A DNA stretch of 64,000 nt from a virus (taxonomy: Duplodnaviria > Caudoviricetes). The notes beneath the pieces were generated by a model that did no database searches, was not told where the DNA came from, and worked only from the letters and a program-made list of their open reading frames with translations. The DNA is taken from positions 940 through 64,939 of the IMG/VR virus record IMGVR_UViG_3300001847_000332. One strand, given 5' to 3'. Within the stretch, counting starts at the first letter, position 1, and each line of letters begins with the position of its first letter. The position numbers and the translations under genes are program-made. Positions 29,283-45,846 of the stretch are shown piece by piece.

Positions 29283-29311
29283 ACTGTAACGTACGGGTGC
29301 CCAAGCGTCAA
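29283..29311 (-). promoter_or_regulatory. sigma70-type promoter for the terS/late operon
   Basis: TTGACG-17-TACAGT. Confidence 0.6.
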
Positions 29312-29365
29312 GCGTACGGTTCTAGCTATGGGCGTGTATAAGTTTTTATGAGTCCATATAGGGTG

Positions 29366-29456
29366 TACTAAGTCAATTTATGGCTATCGGCCAATGTTGG
29401 AAATTTACTAAGTCAATTTATGGCTATTGGCCAATGTTGGAAATTTACTAAGTCAA
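29366..29456. repeat. 40-bp tandem repeat, 2.3 copies
   Basis: TACTAAGTCAATTTATGGCTATYGGCCAATGTTGGAAATT at 29366 and 29406, partial copy at 29446. Confidence 0.95.
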
Positions 29457-29599
29457 CGTAGGTCTGGAGGAGGATGTGGTGGATATAAAACTCAGCGCAG
29501 CGCGGGCGAGCGTAGCCCAAAAAATCTTGGGGGGCACCGGGGGTAGTGGGGTCGCGCTGGCGCCCATTCCGCGCCTCTAACGTTAGAACGAAATATATC

Positions 29600-29628
29600 T
29601 TGACAATCCGTCAAGGCTTATATATACT
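29600..29628 (+). promoter_or_regulatory. sigma70 early promoter
   Basis: TTGACA-17-TATACT. Confidence 0.85.
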
Positions 29629-29699
29629 CCACTCATGTGCTGATAACAGCGCATCCGACACGGGGCGGATTCCCCTAGATACTACAAAGGAAAAACATC

Positions 29700-30317
29700 A
29701 TGAAAAAGACCGATATTATTATCAACGTGATCCCTTCCGAGATGCTGCAAAAGGCGGCGGATAAGATTGCCCATGCAGAACGCTCATTAATCGCGAATGC
29801 AATAAAAATTACCGAAAAAGCCAGCACAGTCCGGCGGGACGAAATCAGGGTGCTGATTAAGTATGCCTTGGATAATAACGTGCCGCGCAAGATTGCACGA
29901 GATGATATTGTGGAAAAGGTACTCATGCCCGCGATTAGTTCGAACGGTGCAGATATTCCGGGCGCCCTGACCAAAAAGACAGTGCAACAGTACGGCACCA
30001 GCATCATGCGGGCGATTGAGCTTGGGGTGGAATATCGGCACAACCTTGCCAATGATCCGCAATATGCGCGCAAGAAAAAGCCCAAAGTGGAAACGCCTGC
30101 CGATGAAGAATCGCTCGAAGTGGGCGAAGGTCTGGCACAGGGCAAGCGCGAGGCCAAGAAACCCGGCGCACCCAAAGTGGCGACAAGGTGGGAGGTGTCC
30201 CACCATGCGAGTGTCACTGTAGGCATGCTTCGCGCCGTGGGTGAAATGGAATGTGCAGATGCTGTGCAGGAAATCCTTGAGGATTACAACCTGTGGGCAC
30301 TGCCAAAAGCCAACTAA
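29700..30317 (+). CDS. first early hypothetical protein
   Basis: 205 aa, AAGGA RBS, downstream of a consensus promoter. Confidence 0.75.
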   Translation: MKKTDIIINVIPSEMLQKAADKIAHAERSLIANAIKITEKASTVRRDEIRVLIKYALDNNVPRKIARDDIVEKVLMPAISSNGADIPGALTKKTVQQYGTSIMRAIELGVEYRHNLANDPQYARKKKPKVETPADEESLEVGEGLAQGKREAKKPGAPKVATRWEVSHHASVTVGMLRAVGEMECADAVQEILEDYNLWALPKAN

Positions 30318-30364
30318 CACAACCGCGCCCCGCAAGGGGCGCACCCAACCTAGGGGGATATACC

Positions 30365-30562
30365 ATGCTAGATATGATTGACCTATTGTTGCAAGCCCGT
30401 TCGAGCGGCAGACTTGACCCCGCGCTAAATGCGCGCATCGATGCCGCAGTGTGCGCGGTGTTGCGTAGGATGGATGCCCACATGGCGCAGATTATGGAAC
30501 GTGAATTCCTCGGGGTATCCAACATCATGGATTGTGAGGAACTCATTGGGCGCGCGCCATGA
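30365..30562 (+). CDS. hypothetical protein
   Basis: MLDMIDLL..., GGGGGA upstream. Confidence 0.55.
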   Translation: MLDMIDLLLQARSSGRLDPALNARIDAAVCAVLRRMDAHMAQIMEREFLGVSNIMDCEELIGRAP

Positions 30563-30642
30563 CCACAGGGCAGGAACTCGGATACCTTATCATGCTGGCC
30601 CTTGCAGTGACGATTGTGGTGGGCTGGATATTCTTCGATTGA
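30559..30642 (+). CDS. 27-aa single-pass membrane peptide
   Basis: MTTGQELGYLIMLALAVTIVVGWIFFD; ATGA-coupled; ends just before the terminator. Confidence 0.55.
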   Translation: MTTGQELGYLIMLALAVTIVVGWIFFD

Positions 30643-30647
30643 CCTAG

Positions 30648-30672
30648 GCCCCGCGAAAGCGGGGCTTTTTTT
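30648..30672 (+). terminator. rho-independent terminator
   Basis: GCCCCGC-GAAA-GCGGGGC-TTTTTTT. Confidence 0.9.
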
Positions 30673-30796
30673 CGCCCGCCTTCCGGGCGGGCGTCATAGT
30701 GGTCTAAGGCGGGCGAGTGAGGGCGCGCGGGCGCGCGTGGGTGGGCGAGGGCCTTACGGGCGCGCACGTAGGGGCCGGATTCTAATGTTAGAAGTG

Positions 30797-30805
30797 TGAT
30801 ATAAT
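30797..30805 (+). promoter_or_regulatory. extended -10 promoter
   Basis: TGaTATAAT with a palindrome copy (30781-30792) immediately upstream. Confidence 0.6.
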
Positions 30806-30834
30806 ATAAGTTCAATACTTACATGGAGGCGCAC

Positions 30835-31173
30835 ATGCGCAACAGATCATGGCCGTTTAAGAATCTGGACATTGGCCAGTCCTGCACCATCCCCGCAAAC
30901 CTTGTACCCAAGGCGCGCGCATACGTGCACGTGTATGGCGGGCAGACGGGCAAACGTTTCTCGTGCAGGGCACAGCCGGATGGGTCGCTGATAGTCACGC
31001 GCAAGCCGCTGGGGGAGCGGCGCATTGTTCTAACGTTAGAAGAGCTGCATGCCCTCGCTAGCACGTTTAGCAAGGCACGCTTGCGCGAGCTAGCCCCCAT
31101 ACTGGCAGGGCACTTCAAAATCGAGAAGTTTGAGGACCGCGCAGAGCTGGTGCAGCGTGACGAAATCGCGTAA
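30835..31173 (+). CDS. small putative DNA-binding protein
   Basis: WPFKNLDIGQS...GKRFS...LIVTR; GGAGG RBS. Confidence 0.65.
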   Translation: MRNRSWPFKNLDIGQSCTIPANLVPKARAYVHVYGGQTGKRFSCRAQPDGSLIVTRKPLGERRIVLTLEELHALASTFSKARLRELAPILAGHFKIEKFEDRAELVQRDEIA

Positions 31174-31620
31174 CGCGGTTACAAAACTTATTAGCTAAGG
31201 ATACGAATCCAAAATAACCGGTTATTATATGCACTATCCCCCTGCTAAGTGGCTGATCCGGCAGGGGGAGTCGTTATAAATGTTCTTTAAATAAATAAAA
31301 ATATAACTAGTAAGTTATGTTGTTACGCCTGTTTATTATGAGCGCTGGAATTTTCTTGGAAGGCTCTCGGCTGCCCTTGACGCTTTTTTTTCTCGTACCT
31401 TTGTGCAAGAAAAAAGGCGTTTTCCCCCTTACGCTCTTAAAATAACGCATAACTCGCCACTTTCGTTGATTTTAAAGGGTTTTCCCGTAACGCGTTTTTT
31501 GCCCCTTGTTACAGCCTTGATTCCAATAGCCCCAACCGTTACGTATTTCGCCACCCATGCGTTACAACGTTGATTTTAAAGGATTCTATAGTCGCCTATA
31601 TTTTGCCTATTTTTTAGGCA
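31174..31620. other. AT-rich non-coding region, candidate replication origin
   Basis: No ORF; AT-rich core; many GTTAC/GTAAC; 15-bp direct repeat at 31464 and 31568. Confidence 0.5.
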
Positions 31621-31623
31621 CGT

Positions 31624-31652
31624 TTGACATTTTTCTGGCGAAATGTTAAGAT
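31624..31652 (+). promoter_or_regulatory. sigma70 promoter
   Basis: TTGACA-17-TAAGAT with TG extension. Confidence 0.75.
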
Positions 31653-31722
31653 ATAATTATCAGGGTAAACCCCTACTTATACCTATAGCCGACGAACCCT
31701 TTTTTCCTAGGACTTGACACTC

Positions 31723-32088
31723 ATGCCTCTAACGTTAGAACTTATTCCCTGCCTAAACGGCGTGCCCCTTAAAGTACAGTATATAAATAGTGTGCGCTAC
31801 GTGCGTATCGGCTCCAAGCTGTTGCCCCTCAAGCAGGTTGTTGCTGAAATCAAGTACGGCACATATCTCCCACCTGCTGAACTAAACCCAACAGAACGGG
31901 TCGAACGCTTGCGCCGCCTCACCACTGAGGGCGGGCTGTCTTACGCCAAGGCCGGCGCCCTGTTCGGCATCACGAGGCAGCGGGTACACCAGCTGCTGCA
32001 CCCACCTGCCGCTCCCGTAGACCCCACAGACTCCGTAGACCCCACAGACTCCGTAACACTCCCTGCCGGATGGACCCCCATCACTTGA
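31723..32088 (+). CDS. HTH DNA-binding protein (sigma region 4-like HTH)
   Basis: LSYAKAGALFGITRQRVHQL; AGGA upstream of ATG 31723. Confidence 0.7.
   Translation: MPLTLELIPCLNGVPLKVQYINSVRYVRIGSKLLPLKQVVAEIKYGTYLPPAELNPTERVERLRRLTTEGGLSYAKAGALFGITRQRVHQLLHPPAAPVDPTDSVDPTDSVTLPAGWTPIT
32015..32055 (+). repeat. 18-bp tandem repeat in the HTH gene tail
   Basis: CCGTAGACCCCACAGACT x2 plus CCGTA (VDPTDS repeats). Confidence 0.9.
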
Positions 32089-32113
32089 CAAACTGTTAAG
32101 TATATGCTATAAT
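32085..32113 (+). promoter_or_regulatory. perfect-consensus sigma70 promoter
   Basis: TTGACA-17-TATAAT with TG extension. Confidence 0.9.
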
Positions 32114-32193
32114 GTATATACGCTGGTAACTCGGCCCCAGCCGAGCCCAGCTAGTTGCCTGCTTACTTTTTCTAACGTTAGACGGAGACGACG

Positions 32194-32409
32194 ATGCACA
32201 CACTATCTACACGTAACCCCATATGCACTGAGTGCGGTATCAACAAGCTACAGCATGCCCGTGCGGCGCTCGGGTACACCGTATGCCTCAGCTGCGGCGA
32301 GCAGATTGCCCAACAACGCAAGCACATAACCGCGCCAATCAATAAGTCCAGCTACATGCTAATCACCGATCTAACCCTGCTCAAACAACTCAACCCTAAG
32401 CGAGCCTAA
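32194..32409 (+). CDS. C4 zinc-finger protein (DksA/TraR-like finger)
   Basis: CTECG...ARAALGYTVCLSCG. Confidence 0.65.
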   Translation: MHTLSTRNPICTECGINKLQHARAALGYTVCLSCGEQIAQQRKHITAPINKSSYMLITDLTLLKQLNPKRA

Positions 32410-32456
32410 GCCACACCCCAGATTTCTAACGTTAGAGTTTACTCACGGAGCCAACC

Positions 32457-33194
32457 ATGACCACACTACACACCCTACTGACCCAGCACCTGCACAGACA
32501 TGCTTACCGCAGAGGCATATTCAAGGGCGCTGCGCCTCTCAACCAGCGCTGGGCAAGGCACAAGCGTGTGCATCACAATCCCATCACCGACACGATGGAC
32601 GTCATTATCTACAACACGGACGTCGTATCTGCCCACAGGGACGGCAGCATCACCCTACGCACTAACGGATGGAACTCGCAGACAACCAAGGACGGTATCA
32701 ATCGGGTGCTATACACCCTGCGCAGCCGTCTATACATCTATTCCCTAAGGCATAGGGGTGTATCCCAATGGGTGTTATCCACTGAACATGGTACTTATGC
32801 ATTCTACGACGGGATGGTGTTGTCCCCAGAACTCAAGCCCTGCCATCCCAAGCCATTTAAGTACCGTGCCATCAACGCTTTTAAATCCACAGCCTTCACC
32901 AAGGACCCCACTACCAAGGAGTTTTTTCAAACCCTGCCGCTGCTCCACGCTGCGCTGCCGGACACTAGGCAGGCACACCTTAACTGGTATGCCTACGAAC
33001 AACGCGGCTCCGCCCTGCGCAAGCTTATAGCAGACCCCGCTCAGTGGGCGGACTTGGTCGAGGCGCAGGCGTACTACGCCCAGTGGCCGGGGGCCCCTAA
33101 ACACCCGGACCACAAGGACGTTGCACGACTACTCAAGCAATACGCCAAGGAGGACCTGTACGAGGTACACGACACGCCATACACCCTGCTGTAA
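32457..33194 (+). CDS. hypothetical early protein
   Basis: 245 aa; ITLRTNGWNSQTTK motif; GGAG RBS. Confidence 0.75.
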   Translation: MTTLHTLLTQHLHRHAYRRGIFKGAAPLNQRWARHKRVHHNPITDTMDVIIYNTDVVSAHRDGSITLRTNGWNSQTTKDGINRVLYTLRSRLYIYSLRHRGVSQWVLSTEHGTYAFYDGMVLSPELKPCHPKPFKYRAINAFKSTAFTKDPTTKEFFQTLPLLHAALPDTRQAHLNWYAYEQRGSALRKLIADPAQWADLVEAQAYYAQWPGAPKHPDHKDVARLLKQYAKEDLYEVHDTPYTLL

Positions 33195-33248
33195 CCCACC
33201 GCCTAACCTTTCTAACGTTAGCACCCTGTATAGGGTGGAGGAACGACC

Positions 33249-33539
33249 ATGCCAACCAAGAAATTAAAAGTTGAAGATATATTGCCGCCTCTGCTCGACA
33301 CGTTGGCGGCGCAGGCTGCCTGCCGTCCGCCCACGGGGTTCCGGCCATCGTCACACTGGTCACAAGCCGGCCCACTTATCGAGGAGGCGCGCATCACGCT
33401 CAGATACTGGAGCAACCAGTCGTTTGTCACGGCGTATGTGGAGGAGGGCGAGTGGTATCAAGGCCCGACACCACTGATAGCCGCCATGCGTGCGTATGTA
33501 GCCCTGCGCATGGGCGACAAGATCACCCCATCAACCTAA
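33249..33539 (+). CDS. NinX/DUF2591-like protein
   Basis: PSSHWSQAGPLIE...GPTPLIAAMRAYV. Confidence 0.8.
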   Translation: MPTKKLKVEDILPPLLDTLAAQAACRPPTGFRPSSHWSQAGPLIEEARITLRYWSNQSFVTAYVEEGEWYQGPTPLIAAMRAYVALRMGDKITPST

Positions 33540-33563
33540 CCTAACCTAACCCGGAGACTTACC

Positions 33564-34616
33564 ATGCGTACTACTATCAACCTTGCCCAAGCTGAGGCGC
33601 TCATCCGCACCTGCGGCCACACTAATACCGTCCTGCTCCGAGGCCAGCCCGGCGTAGGCAAGAGCAGCCTGCTGCACACACTCACCCACCACCTGCCCGA
33701 CTACTACCCGTGCTACGTGGACTGCGCTAACCTAGACCTTGGCGATCTGGGTATGCCGCTCGTAAACCGCGAGACCGAGACCACGTCCTACGCACCGAAC
33801 GTGCGGTTCGGTATACACCAGCCCCGCCCGGTGCTTCTAATGTTAGACGAGCTGGGAAAGGCGCCACGGCCTGTGCTCAACATGCTGCTGCCCGTCATCC
33901 TCGAACGGCGCCTTGGCGACAAGCAACTGCCCACTGGCTCGATCATATTTGCCACGACTAACCTCGACAGCGACGGGGTGGGGGACAACATACCGGCCCA
34001 TGCGTATAACCGCATGACGGTCGTCAACCTTGCTAACCCCACGTCCTCGGAGTGGCTAGCGTGGGCCATGGCTAACAACGTCGCAGCAGAGGTCTGCACA
34101 TTCGCTGAGCAGTACTCACAAGTGTTCGAGTGCTATGCCGACAACCCCGAGACCAAGAATCCGTACATATTCAACCCACTCACCGGTAACACCCGTGCGT
34201 TCGTCAGCCCTCGCAGCCTAGCCCACGCCTCCCACATCGTCCGGCATCGCCAGACGCTAGGTGAGGCGACACTACCTGCGCTCATCGGCACGGTAGGCGA
34301 GTCCGCTGCCCGGGATATGGACGCCCTGCTGCGTATCTCTGACAAGCTGCCGTCACTCCAGACCATCGTCGAGCATCCCACCACTGCCCCCCTACCCAAG
34401 GACGCCGCAGGCTATTTCATCCTTGCGTTCCAGCTGGCTGCGGACTCCAGCCCCTCAACCATGGACGCCATGATGACCTACGTCAACAGGTGGGACGCGT
34501 TCGAGGCGGCGACTGTGTTAATCACTACGCTAGCAGGCGACCGCAACAAAGCGCCGATGGCCTGTGCCAACGCACAGTTCAGAAAGAAAGCGGCTGAGCT
34601 GGGTAAGTATTTCTAA
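33564..34616 (+). CDS. MoxR/CobS-like AAA+ ATPase
   Basis: Walker A GQPGVGKS, Walker B LLMLDE, FATTN sensor, NRM, SPRS. Confidence 0.88.
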   Translation: MRTTINLAQAEALIRTCGHTNTVLLRGQPGVGKSSLLHTLTHHLPDYYPCYVDCANLDLGDLGMPLVNRETETTSYAPNVRFGIHQPRPVLLMLDELGKAPRPVLNMLLPVILERRLGDKQLPTGSIIFATTNLDSDGVGDNIPAHAYNRMTVVNLANPTSSEWLAWAMANNVAAEVCTFAEQYSQVFECYADNPETKNPYIFNPLTGNTRAFVSPRSLAHASHIVRHRQTLGEATLPALIGTVGESAARDMDALLRISDKLPSLQTIVEHPTTAPLPKDAAGYFILAFQLAADSSPSTMDAMMTYVNRWDAFEAATVLITTLAGDRNKAPMACANAQFRKKAAELGKYF

Positions 34617-34626
34617 GGAGACGACG

Positions 34627-35031
34627 ATGCAGATTAAAACAAGTGAGCTGCGTGACGCTGCGCTCGACTGGGCTGTGGGGTTTGCACAATGTATGGAGGC
34701 GACAGGTGGCAAGCCCATACAGGCTCGAGACCTCATGGCCGCTGCCGTGCGTAACGGTATAGCGAGCTACTCGACCGACTGGTCACAAGCCGGGCCGATC
34801 ATCGAGCGGGAGAGTATAGACATTCAGAAAGGCAACCCGCTGTACTTCCCGAAAGGTAATGAGCACGGCGACTACTACGAACCACTGTGGATCGCCGGAG
34901 GTAAGCATGGCAGGACGCCGCTTGAAGCTGCTATGCGCTGCTATGTAGCGAGAAAGCTGGGCAACGAAGTAGATGTACCCGACGAACTTCTAACGTTAGA
35001 CGGAGACGACGATGAAAAAGCAAACGGTTGA
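34627..35031 (+). CDS. NinX/DUF2591-like protein
   Basis: IKTSEL..AALDWAV...YSTDWSQAGPIIERE...TPLEAAMRCYV. Confidence 0.85.
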   Translation: MQIKTSELRDAALDWAVGFAQCMEATGGKPIQARDLMAAAVRNGIASYSTDWSQAGPIIERESIDIQKGNPLYFPKGNEHGDYYEPLWIAGGKHGRTPLEAAMRCYVARKLGNEVDVPDELLTLDGDDDEKANG

Positions 35032-35206
35032 AGCACTGATACAAGACCTCAAGGCACTCATTCAGGTGCAGGAGGAGAAGGAGGAGCTGCTCATTCAGGT
35101 CATAAAGATGTGCCGGGATGAGATCAACAAACCCTCAGCCAATAAGACACAGCTGCTCGCATCACTCGACAAGTTTATCTCAACGCACTACCCCACCACT
35201 CACTAA
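35012..35206 (+). CDS. hypothetical protein
   Basis: 64 aa, GGAG RBS. Confidence 0.65.
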   Translation: MKKQTVEALIQDLKALIQVQEEKEELLIQVIKMCRDEINKPSANKTQLLASLDKFISTHYPTTH

Positions 35207-35215
35207 GGAGACATC

Positions 35216-35569
35216 GTGGACATTAAAGAGTTAGCTATATCCCGTGCTATAGCCATGCTCAACGCAGCGGATGCCAAGTACAAGATCGTGATGCCTGACG
35301 GGCGGGAGTTCGGAGAGCTTGAGGTTAAGCCACCCCGCATCCGCAAACGTAGCTACAGATACCCGCCCGGCGAGATGAGTGCCTACTGGCGGCCACTGGT
35401 GAAGGACTTCGAGGTGGGTACGGTGTTGTCTATTCCGTTCGGCAAGTTCGACGGGGTACACCTGCGCGGCACCATGTCAGGGTACTTCACAACTACCTAC
35501 GGTAAGGGTGCGGTAATGACGTCAATCAACCATGAAACCAAAACTATTGAATGTTTAAGGGTGAGCTGA
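35216..35569 (+). CDS. hypothetical protein (possible DNA-binding)
   Basis: 117 aa, AAGGAG RBS. Confidence 0.7.
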   Translation: MDIKELAISRAIAMLNAADAKYKIVMPDGREFGELEVKPPRIRKRSYRYPPGEMSAYWRPLVKDFEVGTVLSIPFGKFDGVHLRGTMSGYFTTTYGKGAVMTSINHETKTIECLRVS

Positions 35570-35570
35570 C

Positions 35571-35969
35571 ATGTGGACATCAAGCGTAGTTAATCGCAGT
35601 GAGATAGAGGAGCGTCTTGAGGAGCTCGACGCTGAGCGCGATCAGTTCATGGAGGAGACAGGGCTAGACGAAGTGGCCGATAGCGAAGCGTGGGACGAAG
35701 CCCTCAAGGTGTGGGAAACCCATAACGAGGAGGGGCAGGAGTGGCTCAAGCTATCCGAGGTCCTCGAAGAGATGGGCAGTGCCGATTTACTTATCGCTGA
35801 AGATTATTGGGTGGAGTATGTGCAGGACATGCTGGAGGGGTGTGGAGACATACCCGACAACCTGCCGTGGTACGTGGAGATCGACTGGGAAGCAACCGCC
35901 AAGAATGTGGCCGGTGACTACAGCACCATCACAATCGACGGCAAGGAATGGCATTACCAGTACAACTAA
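35571..35969 (+). CDS. highly acidic ArdA-like antirestriction/DNA-mimic protein
   Basis: About 37 D/E vs 7 K/R by hand count; IPDNL..YVEIDWEATAKN...DY resembles the ArdA C-terminus. Confidence 0.6.
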   Translation: MWTSSVVNRSEIEERLEELDAERDQFMEETGLDEVADSEAWDEALKVWETHNEEGQEWLKLSEVLEEMGSADLLIAEDYWVEYVQDMLEGCGDIPDNLPWYVEIDWEATAKNVAGDYSTITIDGKEWHYQYN

Positions 35970-36016
35970 GCAACGCTTCTAACGTTAGAAACCACCCTTA
36001 ACAGGAAGAAACGACG

Positions 36017-37189
36017 ATGAAACCAATAGATCGCTTTAACAAGGCGAGGATCGCCATCATGCGTCACCCACGCTTCTGCCGGTACAGCGGCATCATGGCG
36101 TGCGGCGATACCAAGCTGACCACCGACGTGCCGACAGCCTGCACGGACGGGTGGAACACGTACTTTAACCCCGAGTTTTTCGCAGACTTCACGGACAGCC
36201 AGCTGCGCATGCTTATCCTGCATGAGCAACAGCACAAGGCATACCGACACAACGTAGTGTGGCGCAGCCTGTGGAAGAAAGACCCACAGCTCGCCAACAT
36301 CGCCGCTGACCACTTCGTGAACCTGTCCCTGATAGACATGGACGCAGGCGAGGGGTTTGTCACCATGCCTAACGTCGGTGTGCAGCCTGACCCACAATAC
36401 CGCGGCTGGTCGGTGGGTCGTATCTACCACCACCTCAAGCAAGACCCACCGCCCGAGGGCTCAGGCGGCATGGACGACCACGACTGGGAGCCCTCCTCCG
36501 ACCCTGCCAACCCCGACGAAGCAAGCGAGGCCCAACGGGCCCTCGACCAAGCGCGTGCCCAGCAGATAGACCAAGCCCTGCGCCAAGGCGAGATACTTGC
36601 CAAGCGTAGGGCCGCCGCACTTGGGCTAGACAATGAGCTCGGGTTCGGTGAGCTGCTGCACCCCATGGTCGACTGGCGCACCGCCCTGCGGGAGTTCGTG
36701 ACGGAGCATTGTGCAGGCAAGGATGAGTCCTCATGGCGCAGGCCTAACCGACGCTACCTAGCCGACGACGTGTATATGCCGTCCATGCAGGGAATCACTA
36801 TGACGCGCTTGGCTGTGGTGATGGACACCAGCGGCTCGTGCTTCGGCACGGACATCGCCACGCGGTTCGTTAGCGAACTTGCCGCTATCGCGGAGCAAGT
36901 TAAGCCTACCCTCATTGACATATTGTACGTTGACACCGAGGTAGCCATGCACCAGACATTCGACCATGGCCAGTTCGCTGTAGCGCAGCTTAGACCGCGT
37001 GGTGGTGGCGGCACTAATCTACCAGTGGCGTTCGGCTACCTGAGCGACAAGCGCATTGAGCCCACTGCCATGGTGGTGCTCACGGATGGCGAGACACCGT
37101 TCGGCAACCCGCCGGCGTACCCCGTGCTGTGGGCGATGAGTTCTAACGTTAGAGCGCCGTATGGCACCACCGTGTATTTGGGAGACTGA
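36017..37189 (+). CDS. DUF2201-type metallopeptidase-like + VWA domain protein
   Basis: PTACTDG, LHEQQH, NIAADHFVN, SWRRPNRR, MIDAS DTSGS, GGGGT, LTDG. Confidence 0.88.
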   Translation: MKPIDRFNKARIAIMRHPRFCRYSGIMACGDTKLTTDVPTACTDGWNTYFNPEFFADFTDSQLRMLILHEQQHKAYRHNVVWRSLWKKDPQLANIAADHFVNLSLIDMDAGEGFVTMPNVGVQPDPQYRGWSVGRIYHHLKQDPPPEGSGGMDDHDWEPSSDPANPDEASEAQRALDQARAQQIDQALRQGEILAKRRAAALGLDNELGFGELLHPMVDWRTALREFVTEHCAGKDESSWRRPNRRYLADDVYMPSMQGITMTRLAVVMDTSGSCFGTDIATRFVSELAAIAEQVKPTLIDILYVDTEVAMHQTFDHGQFAVAQLRPRGGGGTNLPVAFGYLSDKRIEPTAMVVLTDGETPFGNPPAYPVLWAMSSNVRAPYGTTVYLGD

Positions 37190-37199
37190 GGTTCGAAAA

Positions 37200-37805
37200 A
37201 TGGGAATGAAATTAACAGCAAGTGAATTAAAGGAACGCTATCCGCGCAAGTTTGAAAAGGAGCATGAAGATTGGATCAACCAGCTGTGGGATGACTGGTG
37301 GGATTATGTGTGGGAGGGTTTCAAGGAGGATATGCAGGCTAAAGGCATGAGTGAGCTGGAGGGCCCGCAGTTTGACCTGTACCGCCGCTACGCCATGTTC
37401 TCTGGCACCCTCAAGCTAAGCACGATCATGGAAGAAACAGGCGCCCATGAAAAATATTACCCGCTGTACTTGGCCGTTGTGCAGGCTAGGGATTATGTGC
37501 GGTGCCATCCAAAAAGCAGGTCCGATACCCTCGGTGTAGCTGTATCCAGCTACTCTTTCAGTAGCAATCCCGAAGGCGTGTTCTCTGACATGGATGACGA
37601 CGACTGGCAGGACTTAGTGGGCGACCTATGGAAGCAGTGCGATCCTGAATCCCTTGCACTCGAGTATTGCAATGACTTGTGCCACGACCTGCTCAAACGC
37701 CTTGATGATGCTTACGGGTGGGAAACATCCGAAGAAAACTTTATAGAAATGTGCGAAACCAACGAAGTGACCTTTGAGGTGAACGACGATGAAATTCAAG
37801 ATTGA
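37200..37805 (+). CDS. acidic hypothetical protein
   Basis: About 201 aa; WWDYVWE...EMCETNEVTF. Confidence 0.7.
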   Translation: MGMKLTASELKERYPRKFEKEHEDWINQLWDDWWDYVWEGFKEDMQAKGMSELEGPQFDLYRRYAMFSGTLKLSTIMEETGAHEKYYPLYLAVVQARDYVRCHPKSRSDTLGVAVSSYSFSSNPEGVFSDMDDDDWQDLVGDLWKQCDPESLALEYCNDLCHDLLKRLDDAYGWETSEENFIEMCETNEVTFEVNDDEIQD

Positions 37806-38055
37806 TATTGCAGGTACATCAGTTTTCCTGTCTCCCGAACAGCTGGGCCAGCTGGTCATAATGCTGGGCGATGCCACCCGCATTGAGGAGAAGTACGTAG
37901 GCACAGGCAAGGGACCCAACGGCGCGTCGTACATAAAGCTCATCCGTTCGTACCAACCGTCCGAGCACTTCCGACCGTACTGCGTAACCGACGACGAGTA
38001 TGCGGCGATGGAGCTCGTCACCAAGCTGGAGGATGAGAAAAATGGAACAAGTTGA
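37789..38055 (+). CDS. hypothetical protein
   Basis: 88 aa, GAGGTG RBS. Confidence 0.65.
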   Translation: MKFKIDIAGTSVFLSPEQLGQLVIMLGDATRIEEKYVGTGKGPNGASYIKLIRSYQPSEHFRPYCVTDDEYAAMELVTKLEDEKNGTS

Positions 38056-38305
38056 GTGCAGGTATTCTGAGTCCGATGGGTATTACTACCTCGCCATATA
38101 CGACCATCGGGTGATCGGACGGTTTGCGGTAGTCGACCAAGAGGGACCCATCGACAAGCGTCCTGAGTGGCTCACGAACATTGTTAATATCGCTGCTGTT
38201 GGTGACCACTTTCTGTCTGTGACAGACCCTCCGCCTACTCGGGTGTTGTGGTTCTGGATGGACAAGAACTACAACTTGCTCGAGATCGGATCGCATAATT
38301 TATGA
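38042..38305 (+). CDS. hypothetical protein
   Basis: Coupled ORF starting MEQVEC. Confidence 0.6.
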   Translation: MEQVECRYSESDGYYYLAIYDHRVIGRFAVVDQEGPIDKRPEWLTNIVNIAAVGDHFLSVTDPPPTRVLWFWMDKNYNLLEIGSHNL

Positions 38306-38493
38306 CGAAGTTTTGCAGCAACTGCATGAAAGTCCGCCCCTCTGAGGGCGGAGTGTGGCTACGCACAGCCACAGCTAAGCGTTGGAGATGTGCCGCATGT
38401 ACCGCACGGGTTAAAGCTCGCAGCGGACCTAATCAACCTGAAAGGACTCAAGATGAATCTGGAGCTGGTGAAGGAAGCATTGAAGGTGGCTGA
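38302..38493 (+). CDS. small zinc-finger protein
   Basis: FCSNC...RWRCAAC. Confidence 0.65.
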   Translation: MTKFCSNCMKVRPSEGGVWLRTATAKRWRCAACTARVKARSGPNQPERTQDESGAGEGSIEGG

Positions 38494-38632
38494 CAGCATT
38501 CTGGGCGCAGCCGTGCATTCCGGCACGCATTTTCAAACAGCGGCGGGCAAGGATGACGCTGTGCAAGCTCGCAACTTGGTCAAAGCCGCATTACAGGAAC
38601 TTACACATGAACCGCATTCCGTCCGTGCCTAA
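38453..38632 (+). CDS. hypothetical protein
   Basis: AAGGA RBS before MNLELV. Confidence 0.55.
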   Translation: MNLELVKEALKVADSILGAAVHSGTHFQTAAGKDDAVQARNLVKAALQELTHEPHSVRA

Positions 38633-38903
38633 TCTACAACAAGTTGTTCGACCTCAGCCTCACGCTACATACAACGAATTGCGGCAAAAAAACGATCAGC
38701 TTGAAGCTGAAGTAGGCAGGCTTAAAGAACTGGTGGATTATCAGCACGCCATCATTGTTGGCCAGCAGCCTCTTATGTCTCACCTCCAGTGGGAGGCGTC
38801 TAAGTGGAATCATTACAAACGTATTCTCGAGGCCAAGGAAGGGAAAGCCGCGGTGTCTGAGGCAGAGAGTCAGGTTCAGCAGCGAATGTCAGGACTAATT
38901 TGA
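38607..38903 (+). CDS. hypothetical coiled-coil protein
   Basis: AGGA RBS before MNRIPS. Confidence 0.6.
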   Translation: MNRIPSVPNLQQVVRPQPHATYNELRQKNDQLEAEVGRLKELVDYQHAIIVGQQPLMSHLQWEASKWNHYKRILEAKEGKAAVSEAESQVQQRMSGLI

Positions 38904-38912
38904 GGGCAAAAA

Positions 38913-39053
38913 ATGATGACTGAGGAAGAATTTACGACTGTTATGGAACAAGGGTATGAGGATGGATACCGAGGTGGGTTAATTATCGGATTCATCCTTG
39001 GAGCGCTCAGCGCGCTGGCCGCGGGCCTGCTTTATATGGTGGTGATGAGATGA
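38913..39053 (+). CDS. 46-aa membrane peptide
   Basis: Read by hand: MMTEEEF...GLIIGFILGALSALAAGLLYMVVMR. Confidence 0.6.
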   Translation: MMTEEEFTTVMEQGYEDGYRGGLIIGFILGALSALAAGLLYMVVMR

Positions 39054-39187
39054 CCGAGGAACAAAAGAAGGCATGGAATGACGCTATTGATGCAGTATTG
39101 GAGCTGTTGAGGATTCATCCCCCAAGCCGCATAGGGGAGGCAGCATTTATGCGGCGTTTAATTAACCTCAAGGAGACGTTAAAGTGA
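39050..39187 (+). CDS. 45-aa hypothetical protein
   Basis: MTEEQKKAWNDAIDAVLELL...; coupled on both sides. Confidence 0.55.
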   Translation: MTEEQKKAWNDAIDAVLELLRIHPPSRIGEAAFMRRLINLKETLK

Positions 39188-39591
39188 AGTCAGTATCAAG
39201 CATGTCGGACGCACGTACATTTGTTAGTGATACAACGGTGGTAAGCCCGTTTCGCCCCCCGGCACAACCGCAACTGAAACCGAAAGACCCAGTACGGTGG
39301 GCGAATTCGGACAACCCACTGCGTCCGGCGCCGATGCCTAAAGTAGTGACTCAAAAAGTAAATGCTCAGCCAGTTAGAACATTGCCTACAGTACAGGAAC
39401 CCCCGGTGCAGGAAAGCAAAACACGCCCTCGCCTTAGAGCAGCCTTGATGTTAGCGGGTGCATTTTTGGTTATTCCCGGGCTAATCGGCGGCATGATTTC
39501 AATGGTAGCGTTAGGGCCACTTGGATTGGCCGTGGCAGCAGGGGCACTGTTTGTCGGGAGTGCGCTCCTGAAGGCTGCGGTAAACATGTAA
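39184..39591 (+). CDS. membrane protein (Pro-rich N-terminus, two TM segments)
   Basis: 135 aa, AAGGAG RBS. Confidence 0.65.
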   Translation: MKSVSSMSDARTFVSDTTVVSPFRPPAQPQLKPKDPVRWANSDNPLRPAPMPKVVTQKVNAQPVRTLPTVQEPPVQESKTRPRLRAALMLAGAFLVIPGLIGGMISMVALGPLGLAVAAGALFVGSALLKAAVNM

Positions 39592-39600
39592 GGAAAAGAC

Positions 39601-40149
39601 ATGGGCAACGGTGTGAGCAGAACGTATCCAGTAGGGATTATTAAGCACAGCCCGACGAGAGTTAGCTTCGGCAAACCCGAAGTTCGGGTATATAACCGAG
39701 AAGAGTGGGAGACAAAACCGTTGCTCAACACTCATGAAGTACGCCGCATCGAAGCCAAGATAAAAGCGGCTGCGGTGCGGCCTATTGAGCCTCAGTGCCG
39801 ATTACCAGAAATTGAGTTGCCAAAACCAAAATGGTGGCAGAAATTACTGCGTACATCTCTTGAAGATCAGCTCGGACTTTTGCTTGGCTCTTGTTTAGTG
39901 GCTGGCGCGGCGACGATATTTATGGGGCCAGTAAGTTTTGTTCTTCCAGCAGCAGTAATAGGTTTCATGCTTGTCAGCGCAGCATATAAAGCGACTGCAA
40001 AAAAACTCCCCACTGAAGCAGAAATCATGGCAAGAAGAAAAGCAGCACAGCATTTAATTAAGTTGGCGAATAAATACAGACGGGCAGGGCTGCATATTGA
40101 GGCCAAACTGTATGCAGATATGGCACAAAAACAATTGAGGATAAAATGA
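39601..40149 (+). CDS. membrane protein (two TM segments)
   Basis: 182 aa, AAGGA RBS. Confidence 0.65.
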   Translation: MGNGVSRTYPVGIIKHSPTRVSFGKPEVRVYNREEWETKPLLNTHEVRRIEAKIKAAAVRPIEPQCRLPEIELPKPKWWQKLLRTSLEDQLGLLLGSCLVAGAATIFMGPVSFVLPAAVIGFMLVSAAYKATAKKLPTEAEIMARRKAAQHLIKLANKYRRAGLHIEAKLYADMAQKQLRIK

Positions 40150-40343
40150 CAGACCAAGAAATGCACCAATTCAATGCGCTCCGTAAGGGATTGAATGCCA
40201 CCTGCTTAGTTATAAAGCGCTTGCTAGCTGAGCGACACTCTATACCCATGACAGACCCGCGTATTGATGAGCTAACAATCAAACTGGTAAATGCCGCCGC
40301 TGATATGTTTGAAGCTGACGCGAGAAAGGATAACTTGCAATGA
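40146..40343 (+). CDS. hypothetical protein
   Basis: 65 aa, coupled. Confidence 0.6.
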   Translation: MTDQEMHQFNALRKGLNATCLVIKRLLAERHSIPMTDPRIDELTIKLVNAAADMFEADARKDNLQ

Positions 40344-40714
40344 ACCTACGCGAAGCAGCACAACAGGCGCTTGAGGCGTTGAGCGTGTTGAAGCCCGACA
40401 ATTGGGAAGATAAAGAATTGCAAATCCAAGCATGGGAGGCCCTTCGCGCCGCGCTATCTGAAGAAGCCATGCAACGCCTGACGGATGTGCAGCAGGAGAT
40501 GGAGCCTGCAATTACAAGAACTGAACGAGGACTGATTTTGCACGTTGGGTGGGATGACATTCCGGCAGGGGCCAAGCTATATCTCTATCCACCAAAGCGA
40601 GAATGGGTTGGGCTGACGGATGAGGATATGAAAGAGATTTTTATCTACGCCGGAGATACAGCAAAGCGTGTTGCCCGCGCCATCGAAGCCAAGCTGAAGG
40701 AGAAAAATTCATGA
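40340..40714 (+). CDS. hypothetical phage protein
   Basis: LREAAQQALEAL...REWVGLTDE...ARAIEAKLKEKN mosaic motifs. Confidence 0.7.
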   Translation: MNLREAAQQALEALSVLKPDNWEDKELQIQAWEALRAALSEEAMQRLTDVQQEMEPAITRTERGLILHVGWDDIPAGAKLYLYPPKREWVGLTDEDMKEIFIYAGDTAKRVARAIEAKLKEKNS

Positions 40715-41184
40715 GATACACACAAGCCAAACCGCTGATTGACAAACTGATGGACATCGCAGTCCTATTCCATGGCTCGCCGTCGCTGCTTAGAGACAGG
40801 CTGTATTCCGCCATCAATGAGTTCCTGCCTGACATGGACGAAGCGTGCATGGAGCGCGGGTGTCCGGCCTTTGATGGGCGTGATGTGGTTGAAGAAGCTC
40901 CTCCGATACAAGAGCAAACTGAAAAACAAACGATCGATAAAGACACGATGGAATATCTAACCATGGCGCAGGAGGCAGATGTATCAATTCGTGGGCACTA
41001 CGACGAAACCGGAGTAACCCCGCAAGAACTCGAACGCTTCGCCGCCCTTGTCGCAGCAGCCGAACGCGAGGCGTGTGCGAAGGTGTGCGAGGAAGTCGAG
41101 CGTAAGGCAACCAAACAACCGCCGATGGTTGGTCAAGGCGCTCAGTCATGCGCTGCGGCTATTCGAGCAAGGGGAGAGAAATGA
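40711..41184 (+). CDS. hypothetical phage protein (EREACA motif)
   Basis: LERFAALVAAAEREACAKVCE...CAAAIRARG. Confidence 0.7.
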   Translation: MRYTQAKPLIDKLMDIAVLFHGSPSLLRDRLYSAINEFLPDMDEACMERGCPAFDGRDVVEEAPPIQEQTEKQTIDKDTMEYLTMAQEADVSIRGHYDETGVTPQELERFAALVAAAEREACAKVCEEVERKATKQPPMVGQGAQSCAAAIRARGEK

Positions 41185-41444
41185 CTAAAGATCAATACAT
41201 CAATCTGTTTCATGAGTTAGAACTGAATCGCGTGGCTTTCAAACGTCTTATGGATTGCGATGACGAAGTGTTGCGCCTGGTTAATCGCGCTCTCGAAATA
41301 GAACGCGAGGCGTGCGCTCAGATATGCGAATCTTTAGCGCAGGATCGTGGGATGTTTCACCCCGATGATGAAGAGTTTAAAACTGGTGTTTTGGCAGGGG
41401 CTGGAATGTGCGGAGTAACGATCCGAGCAAGGAGCAACAAATGA
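41181..41444 (+). CDS. hypothetical phage protein (EREACA motif)
   Basis: EREACAQICE...IRARS. Confidence 0.7.
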   Translation: MTKDQYINLFHELELNRVAFKRLMDCDDEVLRLVNRALEIEREACAQICESLAQDRGMFHPDDEEFKTGVLAGAGMCGVTIRARSNK

Positions 41445-41614
41445 AGAACTTCATCGCAACATATGAAAGCCCGAAGAACATTTTCAGTGGCAAAAAGCTT
41501 TTCCGATGCGCCAACATAGCTGAAGCACAGGATCAGTTCTTCGCATGGCTACGCACGCAAAGCACGTACCAACACATGTGGGCACTTACCGTGTCGTTTG
41601 AGGAGGTACAATGA
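41441..41614 (+). CDS. hypothetical protein
   Basis: AAGGAG RBS, coupled. Confidence 0.6.
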   Translation: MKNFIATYESPKNIFSGKKLFRCANIAEAQDQFFAWLRTQSTYQHMWALTVSFEEVQ

Positions 41615-41814
41615 AGCTATACGACGTACCAAAAAATACAAAAATTAGAGTTGGGGATGTGCCGCTGATGTTTCACCACATCGACGGCATGTATTCATTG
41701 TGCACTGATGAACACGGGCATCCCGTACACCTTGCTGCATGGACCGACGTTGAATGCGTAAGCGAAGCCGATACAGACCAAAGCCAATCCTCCGAAACAC
41801 GATTGGATATGTAA
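41611..41814 (+). CDS. hypothetical protein
   Basis: MKLYDVP...FHHIDGMYSLC; GGAGG RBS. Confidence 0.7.
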   Translation: MKLYDVPKNTKIRVGDVPLMFHHIDGMYSLCTDEHGHPVHLAAWTDVECVSEADTDQSQSSETRLDM

Positions 41815-42215
41815 TAGAAGGTGTAACCCCGTTAGCTCAGCATAACCCGCACGTACTGACACTCAAGATCAAGAACCACGCGTCCATGGTTGCGCTGACC
41901 AAGGGCGAAGCTACCAAGGATGACTTTAATCGGCTGGTGGCTGCTGCCAATGTAGTCGAGGCGCTGTATATCATGGGCTTTGGCAAGGAGTACAAGGACG
42001 CCATGGATAACGGGCACTCCGCCCTTATGGCACTTGGCCAGCGTGGTAAAAAGATCGGCAAGCTTGTGCTGAAGGCGGAAGAACTTCAGGCACTTAACTA
42101 CATGATGGAGCTGCACGATGCGCAGCTGGATGTCATTACGGTTAAGCATTTGGAGAACGCGATCAAGATGGTTGAGCGCGAACGCAGGGCAGGGCGTACC
42201 AAGGATATTGTATGA
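41754..42215 (+). CDS. hypothetical protein
   Basis: 153 aa; MRKRSRYRPK...LHDAQL. Confidence 0.7.
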   Translation: MRKRSRYRPKPILRNTIGYVIEGVTPLAQHNPHVLTLKIKNHASMVALTKGEATKDDFNRLVAAANVVEALYIMGFGKEYKDAMDNGHSALMALGQRGKKIGKLVLKAEELQALNYMMELHDAQLDVITVKHLENAIKMVERERRAGRTKDIV

Positions 42216-42424
42216 TTGTTAAAGACTCATCCGATGGCACGGCAGCGGTTGACCCGAATTATTTCTGGCAGCCGATTGCTACCTGCCCCATTGGCCGTAA
42301 GGTTCAGCTCATCAACAAACCGATGGGCTGCGCTACCTACGGCGTTTATGACCGTAAAAGTACCTACTGGACTCATTGGGCACCCCTGCCCAAGTTCAGT
42401 GTTGATTCTTTAAAGGAGCAGTAA
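42212..42424 (+). CDS. DUF551-like protein
   Basis: WQPIATCP...THWAPLP. Confidence 0.7.
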   Translation: MIVKDSSDGTAAVDPNYFWQPIATCPIGRKVQLINKPMGCATYGVYDRKSTYWTHWAPLPKFSVDSLKEQ

Positions 42425-42811
42425 ATGAAAGCAAAAGATAAAATCCGTAAGGCTTTGGCGAAAAACCCTAACCTGAGCGTGGCCGAGTTGGCCGATAAGC
42501 TCAACATCTCTCGCGTTACGGTGTACGCTGTCCGCAAGCAGTTGGCGCAGGAAACGTTTGAGGAAACTGTTGAGGAAACCGCGCCGGTTGAAGTCGAATC
42601 CGTTACCGCCAAGCAAGTTGGCGGTAACCATTACACAACCCTTGAGATTCAGCCATGGGAAGTCATCGAACGCAACAACATGGGTTTCTTCGACGGCAAT
42701 GCCGTGAAGTATCTGATGCGGTACAAGGCCAAGGGTGGTGTGGAGGACCTCAAGAAGGCCCATCACTATCTCGAGAAACTGATCGAGCTCGAGAATGGCC
42801 GCAACGCCTGA
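42425..42811 (+). CDS. DUF3310 (T7 gp1.7-like nucleotide kinase) with N-terminal HTH
   Basis: QVGGNHY...GNAVKYLMRY..KGGVEDLKKAHHY; HTH SVAELADKLNISRVTVY. Confidence 0.82.
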   Translation: MKAKDKIRKALAKNPNLSVAELADKLNISRVTVYAVRKQLAQETFEETVEETAPVEVESVTAKQVGGNHYTTLEIQPWEVIERNNMGFFDGNAVKYLMRYKAKGGVEDLKKAHHYLEKLIELENGRNA

Positions 42812-43130
42812 AGCAAAGGTTAAAGCTAAAGTCCATGCCAAGCTCAAATCGCATGGCGCATATGCCGTCAATTACATTGGCGGCCAATATGCTAATAACG
42901 GCACTCCTGATATTCTGGCCTGCTACCGCGGGCGGTTTATCGCGATAGAGTGCAAGGCTGGCAAGAACAAGCCCACCGCTCTTCAGCTGCGCAACCTCGA
43001 GCGCATTGAGGACGCCGGTGGGCTGGCCTTGGTTATCAACGAAACCAACTTGGAGGTGCTCAATGACCTCGAAGCCGCTCGATCTAATTGGGCAGATTTT
43101 GGCCGATCCGTCACTGATCCTGAAGGGTGA
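42795..43130 (+). CDS. VRR-NUC nuclease (Holliday junction resolvase-like)
   Basis: TPEAKVK...GTPDIL...FIAIECKA...PTALQ. Confidence 0.88.
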   Translation: MAATPEAKVKAKVHAKLKSHGAYAVNYIGGQYANNGTPDILACYRGRFIAIECKAGKNKPTALQLRNLERIEDAGGLALVINETNLEVLNDLEAARSNWADFGRSVTDPEG

Positions 43131-43180
43131 TGAGCACGAGCAGGAGATACTTCGCGTGCGGATGAAACAACGGCAAGACG

Positions 43181-43256
43181 TGGTGCTGGCGGAAGGAATC
43201 GAACCCTCGACCGCTCGCTTACAAGGCGAGAGCTCTACCAACTGAGCTACGCCAGC
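43181..43256 (-). tRNA. tRNA-Thr (anticodon UGU), CCA encoded
   Basis: GCTGGCGTAGCTCAGTTGGTAGAGCTCTCGCCTTGTAAGCGAGCGGTCGAGGGTTCGATTCCTTCCGCCAGCACCA: 76 nt, full cloverleaf. Confidence 0.95.
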
Positions 43257-43277
43257 AATTTCTAACGTTAGAACACG

Positions 43278-45838: not shown

Positions 45839-45846
45839 TGCAACAT

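Follow-up and report, generated by a model that had tools for sequence, protein, structure and literature searches.

Palindromic boxes that differ between close relatives mark the early genes of an uncultured freshwater tailed phage

The DNA analyzed here, referred to as the window, is a stretch of 64,000 nucleotides (nt), bases 940 to 64939 of a 64,939-bp virus record (IMGVR_UViG_3300001847_000332) that has direct terminal repeats, is rated complete and represents an uncultured freshwater tailed phage. A minus-strand block at window positions 1 to 29311 encodes the large terminase, the portal and virion proteins. The plus-strand block that follows (29700 to 53011) starts with small early genes and also encodes an AAA+ ATPase adjoining a DUF2201 metallopeptidase/VWA protein, two NinX-like proteins, and the replication proteins DNA polymerase I, an exonuclease, a helicase and a primase-helicase. 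A further minus-strand block (53226 to 64000) includes the gene for a polyvalent protein of 2106 amino acids (aa). The early block is served by promoters of the host sigma70 type, at 29600, 31624 (TTGACA-17-TAAGAT) and 32085 (perfect consensus). Between 29576 and 43272 lie twelve copies of the 12-bp palindrome TCTAACGTTAGA, which are the subject of this report and which we call boxes.

An initial annotation had reported nine perfect and three single-mismatch copies of this palindrome, and a motif scan allowing at most one mismatch reproduced all of them at their positions; the one-mismatch copies read TCTAATGTTAGA (at 30781 and 33836) and TCTAACGTTAGC (at 33211). In 100 dinucleotide shuffles the same scan gave a mean of 0.06 matches and a maximum of 1. 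The annotation had noticed no copy outside the early region, and this holds over the entire 64,939-bp record, which contains the identical 12 copies and no more (reversed control pattern, 0); all 12 sites are confined to 13.7 kb of the 64.9-kb genome. When up to three mismatches were allowed, the only extra hits were nine 3-mismatch sites, all between 4543 and 23053 (21 hits found in total versus 15.3 expected). There are no 2-mismatch copies in the window, and the family is therefore sharply bounded. The 12-mer was not found as an exact string in the published literature.

The first box (29576 to 29587, exact) lies in the divergent intergenic region, 12 nt upstream of the −35 element of the first early promoter (29600 to 29628, sigma70 type, TTGACA-17-TATACT, 11 of 12 consensus positions); its counterparts in relatives are syntenic and also lie 5′ of a TTGACA. 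Like the other early-region genes and promoters described below, except for a tRNA gene, this promoter is on the plus strand. The first early gene (29700 to 30317) encodes a 205-aa protein of no family, which is a candidate reader of the boxes, and a strong intrinsic terminator-like hairpin (30646 to 30667) closes the first transcription unit. The second box (30781 to 30792) occupies the spacer of a promoter, 5′ of the TATAAT at 30800 to 30805, which by eye is an extended −10 element (TGaTATAAT), and is 42 nt before the ATG at 30835 of a gene for a 112-aa “WPFKN” protein (30835 to 31173). The third box (31029 to 31040, exact) is within that gene, in codons for VLTLEE, and is kept in the closest relative (locus L020). 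The fourth (31728 to 31739, exact) covers codons 2 to 6 of a gene starting at ATG 31723 (31723 to 32088), which encodes a 121-aa protein with a C-terminal sigma70-region-4-like helix-turn-helix (HTH); in the related genome G003, the counterpart of this box is located 5′ of the Shine-Dalgarno sequence.

Downstream of a consensus sigma70 promoter (32085 to 32113, TTGACA-17-TATAAT, 12 of 12 positions), the fifth box (32171 to 32182, exact) lies in the 5′ leader of a zinc-ribbon protein gene, 1 nt before GGAGA and 11 nt before ATG 32194. The sixth (32425 to 32436, exact) is 20 nt before ATG 32457, and the seventh (33211 to 33222, one mismatch) is 26 nt before ATG 33249, the start of the short NinX-like protein. 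The eighth (33836 to 33847, one mismatch) falls on the Walker B codons (LLMLDE) of the AAA+ ATPase. The ninth (34989 to 35000, exact) is at the 3′ end of a NinX-like gene and 11 nt before ATG 35012, and the tenth (35978 to 35989, exact) is 27 nt before ATG 36017 of the DUF2201 metallopeptidase/VWA protein. At the 3′ end of the DUF2201 gene, the eleventh box (37142 to 37153, exact) lies ahead of the next gene, at 7 or 46 nt from its start depending on which of two candidates is used, and it is syntenic, with the reading frame preserved, in G003 and G002 (locus L006). The twelfth (43261 to 43272, exact) lies between a minus-strand tRNA-Thr gene (TGT; 43181 to 43256), whose 5′ end is 4 nt away, and ATG 43278 of the DNA polymerase I gene, polA (43278 to 45152); it is syntenic in G003 and G004 (locus L008). 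No Shine-Dalgarno sequence is present between this box and the polA ATG, and polA starts 5 to 7 nt past the dyad in the window, G003 and G004. There are no dyad sites 3′ of the polA start. In all, six boxes (32171, 32425, 33211, 34989, 35978 and 43261) are 5 to 27 nt upstream of a start codon, two share an identical string from the box via GGAGA to the ATG, and three (31029, 31728 and 33836) are intragenic.

Other features of the region were recorded alongside the boxes. The tRNA-Thr gene is a minus-strand element inside a plus-strand gene block, abutting a box and the polA start, and this arrangement is kept in G003 and G004; in a scan of 28500 to 44500 against Rfam, a tRNA was the sole match. 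Ahead of the first box, at 29366 to 29485 between the terminase-side and early operons, are three tandem 40-nt repeats (100%, 98% and 63% identity), each with a small palindrome around GGCCAAT, which may be a packaging or replication signal. The stretch before the HTH gene (31174 to 31700) is AT-rich and noncoding, with repeated CGTTGATTTTAAAGG and CGTAACGCG motifs and two promoter-like sites. The initial annotation had described three tandem CTAAC half-sites before the AAA+ gene; a repeat is indeed present at 33536 to 33550, but it is a tandem (CCTAA)x3, located after the stop codon of the short NinX-like gene and ahead of the AAA+ Shine-Dalgarno sequence, and relatives have either a full box or CCAA/CCACCAA repeats in its place. 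The AAA+ ATPase is MoxR-like, and its pairing with the DUF2201 metallopeptidase/VWA protein (33564 to 37189) is flanked by NinX-family paralogues at 33249 and 34564; the gene order ATPase, metallopeptidase, polymerase is also found in Rhizobium phage RHph_TM3_14A. In the minus-strand block beyond, the 2106-aa polyvalent protein (53226 to 59546) has a lysozyme-like part (residues 675 to 842), a weak metalloprotease match and an LPD38 domain. The window stretch is present in aquatic and freshwater metagenome sequencing runs. In one metatranscriptome, three short contigs match exactly (266, 171 and 311 nt), and the box at 35978 is spanned by one of them; the contigs show no ends and could be due to DNA carry-over.

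No close cultured relative was found, and megablast of 29000 to 45000 against phage records gave just a 53-nt tRNA-like match. By primase, the nearest cultured phages are Pseudomonas phage Rollin (27.9% identity), in whose genome the dyad array was not found, and the Rhizobium RHph_TM phages (24.9%). RHph_TM3_14A (L019) has 14 copies of TACCT-N4-AGGTA scattered over its structural and early regions; this dyad was set aside because two mapped copies, just 3′ of the capsid and terminase genes, suggest that these are probably terminator-like hairpins.

A scan of related viruses, as proposed in the initial annotation, revealed that the array is conserved as a feature and not as a sequence. The exact 12-mer was present in none of five viral contigs found via the AAA+ protein; instead, all five had dyads in which either one base was added at the center between unchanged half-sites or the arms were TTTAA. 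G003, a complete 63.9-kb genome, has 11 copies of TCTAA-N3-TTAGA within 13.7 kb (19982 to 33701), G005 has 10 copies of TTTAA-N3-TTAAA, and G001 has 8 dyad copies, with 5 and 3 in the partial loci G002 and G004, respectively. (In G005, the AAA+ match at 10001 to 11057 of locus L009 translates with seven stops in one frame, and the gene may be frameshifted or the contig erroneous.) A profile-guided scan then yielded the best 80 of 127 relatives, as loci of at most 21 kb, and at least five copies of a single dyad were present in 67 of the 80, in the same early region. By top dyad, 22 loci belonged to the class TCTAA-N2 (half-site TCTAA, two central bases), 11 to TATAA-N2, 10 to TTTAA-N2, and 7 each to TCTAA-N3 and CTTAA-N2, the remainder falling into rarer classes and the most distant loci carrying unrelated dyads. 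L020, of the TCTAA-N2 class, has the same 12-mer as the window. Up to 19 copies occur per locus, with arms of 5 to 6 bp and centers of 2 to 4 bp, and both the half-site (TCTAA, TATAA, TTTAA, CTTAA and others) and the spacing (N2, N3 or N4) vary among close relatives.

The early confinement seen in the window recurs in whole records, where the arrays occupy just 10 to 13 kb: 13 sites in 23435 to 33213 of G006, 13 in 10440 to 19875 of G009 and 14 in 42135 to 55584 of G010. The half-complete G007 has 13 sites within 9194 to 19298. In the five contigs found via the AAA+ protein, sites recur at homologous places, namely 5′ of the first promoter, at the HTH gene start, at the DUF2201 3′ end and in the tRNA-polA gap. 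The early proteins of these relatives are down to 35 to 50% identical, compared to 70 to 86% for the replication proteins.

Two coding-sequence copies illustrate how the boxes persist within genes. Both the window and L020 spell the Walker B site with CTA and TTA codons, while relatives with N3 boxes have CTT, CTC or CTG there, and the single mismatch of the site is forced by the ATG in its middle. Three genomes retain the site at the DUF2201 3′ end, and its length difference (12 versus 13 nt) is compensated in the flank (25 versus 28 nt, counted manually). The initial annotation had argued for selection at the DNA level. Since syntenic arrays persist despite protein identities of 35 to 50%, and intragenic copies are held by rare codons or frame-compensating flanks, selection on the nucleic acid is strongly supported by these comparisons; that it acts on DNA rather than RNA is the part we infer.

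All boxes of a genome change jointly between close relatives. L032 and L039 are 82 to 88% identical in DNA across the locus, and every box reads TATAA..TTATA in L032 but TCTAA..TTAGA in L039, inside an otherwise identical cassette. L066 and L069 (∼85% DNA identity) have different arm letters as well as different spacers, N4 in L066 and N3 in L069. Among 431 non-redundant sites of the T-N-TAA type, 419 matched the consensus, 10 had one arm changed and none had a private compensatory pair. One array is mixed: L029 carries five TCTAA-N2 and four TATAA-N2 boxes in one locus, and the allele of its first early gene closely resembles the one in L024 (TATAA). Nine loci (L021, L022, L024, L032, L033, L036, L039, L044 and L045) contain, irrespective of box class, three to four copies of a second dyad, GTTAC-N3-GTAAC, which may be an origin or a site for the HTH protein itself.

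Any explanation has to account for the existence of the array, its early confinement and conserved positions, its persistence in coding sequence and the joint change of all copies. The boxes may well be the window's version of a lineage-wide “early-gene box” (TNTAA, two to four spacer bases, TTANA) that marks the first early promoter and is repeated before, and sometimes within, most genes from there up to polA. The reading that we put first, if tentatively, is that they form an array of operators or roadblocks on the DNA and that a dimeric protein specific to the phage reads them. Such a protein would bind the boxes on double-stranded DNA and control transcription of the early block by the host RNA polymerase. 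The promoter-proximal copy would set initiation, the operon-internal copies would serve as roadblocks or cooperative anchors, the outcome might be a timed shut-off or a tuning of the early genes, and a private motif in each phage would prevent cross-talk with the circuits of related phages. The operator- or stoperator-like array suggested in the initial annotation thus remains the best reading, with binding and repression as its conjectural parts. That annotation also offered a parS-like role, which gained no support, as no ParB domain was detected in the 34 window proteins scanned against Pfam. Among these 34 proteins and the 28 scanned against PHROGs, both subsets of the genome's open reading frames (ORFs), there was likewise no RNA polymerase, integrase or ParB-like protein.

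Several observations argue that the target is DNA. The dyad symmetry is exact despite marginal hairpins: the predicted hairpins of the window's dyad are very weak (−0.2 to −1.2 kcal/mol; best fold, 4 to 5 bp with a 4-nt loop), and a 2-base center cannot form a loop. Since the first box lies 12 nt 5′ of the −35 element, it is not transcribed from the first early promoter, and both this untranscribed copy and the copy in the promoter spacer at 30781 point to DNA as well. The promoter link extends to relatives: 38 loci reach far enough upstream, and in 22 of them TTGAC(A/G) appears 2 to 27 nt after the first site (read manually), and 11 of the 38 satisfied a stricter scripted pattern that also required a −10 element. 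The distances from dyad center to −35 element cluster at 8 to 10, 17 to 21 and 25 to 34 nt, which looks like helical phasing, in what are few and related cases.

In a search for the reader by association of plus-strand protein families with motif class, no family separated the classes perfectly. The first early gene was the only scanned family to separate them among close relatives. Among pairs whose AAA+ proteins are at least 90% identical, its product had a median identity of 91.3% in same-class pairs (n = 27) and 47.4% in different-class pairs (n = 37; maximum, 66.5%), whereas different-class pairs reached 84 to 98% identity in every other tested family (HTH, zinc-ribbon, DUF2201 and others). 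Five of its six multi-member alleles were pure for one class, the exception involving the mixed array of L029, and its alleles followed class where the HTH alleles reassorted. On the tree of this protein, class labels required 16 changes (minimum, 12; shuffled mean, 26.8). The covariation suggests the product of 29700 to 30317 as a candidate reader, a lead and not a proof. In the structural model (mean predicted local distance difference test [pLDDT] score, 83.7), this protein consists of a helical N-domain joined through a disordered linker to a pair of C-terminal helices. Foldseek against the PDB returned nothing at an E value of ≤0.001, the best VIA-align match had a Z score of 6.1 and consisted of helical hairpins only, and the matches in the ESM Atlas were unnamed viral clusters only. 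In a comparison with ribbon-helix-helix proteins, the model's C-terminal helices (163 to 179 and 183 to 195) follow the disordered linker with no strand, and no ribbon-helix-helix chain was among the listed fold matches. A homodimer prediction for residues 150 to 205 scored 0.39, compared to a mark of 0.42.

The points that weigh against an operator array read by a phage protein concern both the reader and the site. The classical DNA-binding candidates do not follow the motif. The initial annotation had named the products of 31723, 30835 and 49798 as possible binders. The 31723-family protein is conserved across the phage family and has differing alleles also within one motif class, and its HTH region is identical, letter for letter, in L032 (TATAA) and in L037 and L039 (TCTAA); it was rejected as the reader. 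A word-based homology search with this HTH gave no match, and a profile search gave 1398 proteins, mostly multi-HTH repeat proteins, and was uninformative (matches P0002 to P0010, of 300 to 1557 aa, carry 6 to 17 tandem copies of the same HTH unit). The 49798 product, an 80-aa HTH protein encoded near the primase gene, was also rejected, since TATAA and TCTAA genomes encode homologues of it with the same or almost the same sequence. Matches to the 30835 product were confined to the nearest relatives, and blastp gave none in L032.

The case for the first early protein is itself open to objection. Its covariation with motif class rests on about two to three independent allele/class events, and the association scan covered plus-strand ORFs of at least 50 aa in loci of at most 21 kb. 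The window's protein is just 14 to 26% identical to those of the relatives in which covariation was seen, and 30 to 40% identical to its nearest relatives. Same-class pairs can have very different first genes (minimum identity, 47.5%; 40% for the window versus L020), and a fast-evolving, host-tracking anti-defense gene could yield the same covariation. Neither Pfam nor PHROGs placed the protein in a family, and no match to a known DNA-binding fold emerged from its model. As for the sites, the spacing of the half-sites shifts by one base between close relatives (L066, N4, and L069, N3; the window, N2, and G003, N3), which fits poorly with a rigid dimer but is what a stem-loop would readily allow. 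A Shine-Dalgarno sequence and a start (ORF of at least 40 aa) follow within 60 nt downstream of 347 of the 700 sites, compared to 22% for positions drawn at random from these spans and 3.9% when the opposite strand is taken. Finally, the center and flanks of the boxes are asymmetric, with a bias that differs by class (CC in TATAA, GG in TTTAA); since this asymmetry is opposite between classes, it does not amount to a simple preference on the mRNA strand.

These properties of the sites lead to the strongest alternative, which we consider possible but doubtful: that the boxes are an RNA-level element of early translation-initiation regions, in which the copy in the mRNA leader is the functional one and is bound by a phage RNA-binding protein or nuclease. 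In a variant of this reading, the self-complementary copies would pair with each other in 12- to 24-bp duplexes, for RNase III-like processing or ribosome gating. The linkage to Shine-Dalgarno sequences and strand argues for RNA: starts lie downstream of the boxes in a strand-dependent manner (50% versus 3.9%), with the Shine-Dalgarno sequence at a median distance of 8 nt and the start at 19 nt, and some lineages have a fixed cassette, AAAACT-dyad-ACTTTT-GGAGAA-ATG. The same direction is indicated by the class differences, which always replace a complementary pair (A:T, C:G or T:A at position 2), and by the free spacer length of 2 to 4 bases, as in a stem-loop. The polA gene, with no Shine-Dalgarno sequence and a start directly past the dyad, also fits an RNA role. 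Of the ten half-changed sites, six read T..G, a wobble-compatible combination on the mRNA strand, but these six represent about two independent places, one of which, with two of the sites, is the promoter-proximal copy. That copy, conserved 5′ of the −35 element and untranscribed by the first promoter, is difficult to accommodate in an RNA element, as are the marginal hairpins and the lack of an Rfam match besides the tRNA. Furthermore, structure alone leaves the uniformity of the boxes within a genome unexplained, and a sequence-specific reader or pairing between copies would be needed.

A host reader is unlikely; in this view, a nucleoid-associated protein, global regulator or other DNA-binding protein of the host would recognize the sites, and the motif classes would be adaptations to host strains. 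Clean covariation was seen for no phage DNA-binding protein, the early promoters are of the host sigma70 type, and the covariation of the first early gene would also be expected if gene and motif both track the host. However, phages that are 82 to 88% identical in DNA show six or more motif classes besides spacing variants, and as many host regulator variants would be required; the mixed array of L029 also fits poorly with a host reader.

The initial annotation also offered crossover sites as an alternative, with a breakpoint analysis as the check, and we consider it very unlikely that the boxes are mainly recombination linkers, that is, crossover points at gene boundaries for shuffling early-gene cassettes. 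Homology blocks were compared in 11 informative locus pairs (12 were run, one of which had no blocks). Breakpoints were in excess near sites (binomial P = 2e-7; 25 of 95 within 40 nt, with 8% expected), one site in L032 (8165) is the start of a two-gene insertion, and mixed arrays exist (L029). However, the pairs are not mutually independent, and a breakpoint was near 20 of 61 starts with a dyad and 37 of 175 dyad-free starts (odds ratio, 1.8; P = 0.08); since boxes sit at gene boundaries, most of the signal is a gene-boundary effect. Linkers would need neither dyad symmetry, nor a copy 5′ of the promoter, nor rare-codon intragenic copies, and differing classes in close relatives would hinder exchange, not favor it. 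A crossover role is therefore at most secondary.

Promoters of the T7 group likewise stand as one box per gene, with a phage-specific sequence and joint change, and those of the N4 virion polymerase are hairpins with a 5- to 7-bp stem and a 3-nt loop. We regard it as most improbable that the boxes are such promoters, possibly of the hairpin type, for an unrecognized phage RNA polymerase or sigma-like factor that transcribes gene by gene: a box before most genes, a phage-own sequence with all copies changing jointly, the 5-bp stem and 3-nt loop geometry of the N3 versions (which the window's dyad, with its 2-base center, lacks) and a sigma70-region-4-like HTH protein encoded inside the array speak for it, but no RNA polymerase was found among the scanned proteins (in the four largest structural-side proteins no polymerase family matched, although very divergent polymerases can escape profile searches, and the 2106-aa protein is of the polyvalent ejection type, with lysozyme-like, protease-like and LPD38 parts), strong consensus sigma70 promoters already serve the region, the boxes end as little as 1 to 2 nt before a Shine-Dalgarno sequence or ATG and leave no room for a leader, the motif is symmetric, and the sigma-like HTH does not covary with it.

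A bolder extension of the operator reading, which we think rather improbable, is that a hypervariable, first-made protein of no known fold reads 8 to 19 dyad boxes as a private early-gene code in uncultured lytic freshwater phages, with a specificity that switches between near-identical phages, resembling immunity or incompatibility without lysogeny. If this were so, a phage would regulate or exclude only genomes bearing its own mark. That dozens of related phages have their own versions of the dyad points to a fast-evolving regulatory code. If the first early protein is the reader, it would represent a new DNA- or RNA-recognition fold and would provide compact, orthogonal regulator/operator pairs; should they function at the RNA level, the boxes would constitute a novel type of phage signal for translation or processing. 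Repeated short motifs are already known from phages, including stoperators, the start-associated sequences (SAS) and extended start-associated sequences (ESAS), and the Cluster O repeats, and for most of them the reader and function have not been found. The present lineage is a natural experiment, in which dozens of close relatives differ by one letter pair or one spacer base at all copies. Because the relatives differ at every copy at once, the reader can be sought by covariation and tested by part swaps.

Several known systems come close to this array. The conserved inverted repeats (CIR) of phiC31, a temperate phage that infects actinobacteria, are present in many copies before early genes and are bound by the phage repressor. 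The stoperators of Cluster A mycobacteriophages, bound by an L5 gp71-type repressor, are many copies of a short motif in short intergenic spaces near gene starts and stops; motif and reader specificity vary among related phages, and bound repressor blocks initiation and elongation (PMC6550527, PMC9283540, PMC3203893). The boxes resemble them in being a multicopy short motif near starts that differs between related phages. Stoperators, however, are asymmetric 13-mers oriented with transcription, are read by a monomeric repressor and occur genome-wide in temperate phages. The window's box is a perfect 12-bp palindrome and those of the relatives are 12- to 14-bp dyads, and rather than lying on both genome arms, the sites are early only in the window, G003, G006, G009 and G010. 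Nor was coevolution of the motif with an HTH repressor seen: neither HTH family tracks class, a non-HTH protein does, and there was no integrase or motif-tracking HTH among the window proteins scanned against Pfam and PHROGs.

In Cluster K mycobacteriophages, SAS and ESAS repeats lie in the non-structural half of the genome, directly 5′ of start codons and before unrelated genes, and the ESAS are inverted repeats whose consensus differs by subcluster; their function is unknown, and the authors allow for a DNA-binding or RNA reader (PMC3203893). The present arrays share the location in the non-structural half and before unrelated genes. The SAS is an asymmetric 13-mer that contains the Shine-Dalgarno sequence and lies 3 to 7 nt from the start, and ESAS have imperfect 17-bp arms with spacers of 4 to 13 bp (PMC3203893), whereas the present sites are perfect 12- to 14-bp dyads 5′ of the Shine-Dalgarno sequence, at the median 19 nt from the start noted above, with promoter-proximal and intragenic copies in addition. 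The 17-bp dyad repeats of Cluster O mycobacteriophages (TGTTCGGNNNCCGAACA) have invariant inverted arms and a variable 3-bp center and occur in tens of copies, many of them intergenic or near gene 5′ ends, with function and reader unknown (PMC4351075). They differ in having 7-bp arms and more than 30 copies genome-wide which, per the authors, are not closely tied to starts, and switching of specificity is not reported (PMC4351075); the present arrays have arms of 5 to 6 bp, are early only and start linked, and fall into many specificity classes. In plasmid RK2, the KorA and KorB operators (oligonucleotides OA, TGTTTAGCTAAACA, and OB, ..TTTTAGCGGCTAAAA..) are repeated 12-bp and 13-bp palindromes at and away from promoters that jointly control a gene block, as the boxes may do (PMC11790492). 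KorB is a ParB-family CTPase clamp of a plasmid system, whereas no ParB domain was detected in the 34 window proteins scanned against Pfam. The existence of stoperators and of the 12- to 13-bp palindromic operators of KorA and KorB provides precedents for reading the boxes as operators. The present array shares features with stoperators, SAS/ESAS, the Cluster O repeats and the KorA/KorB operators and has the full defining set of none of them; its notable distinction is the presence of many specificity classes among near-identical phages, together with a candidate reader of no known fold.

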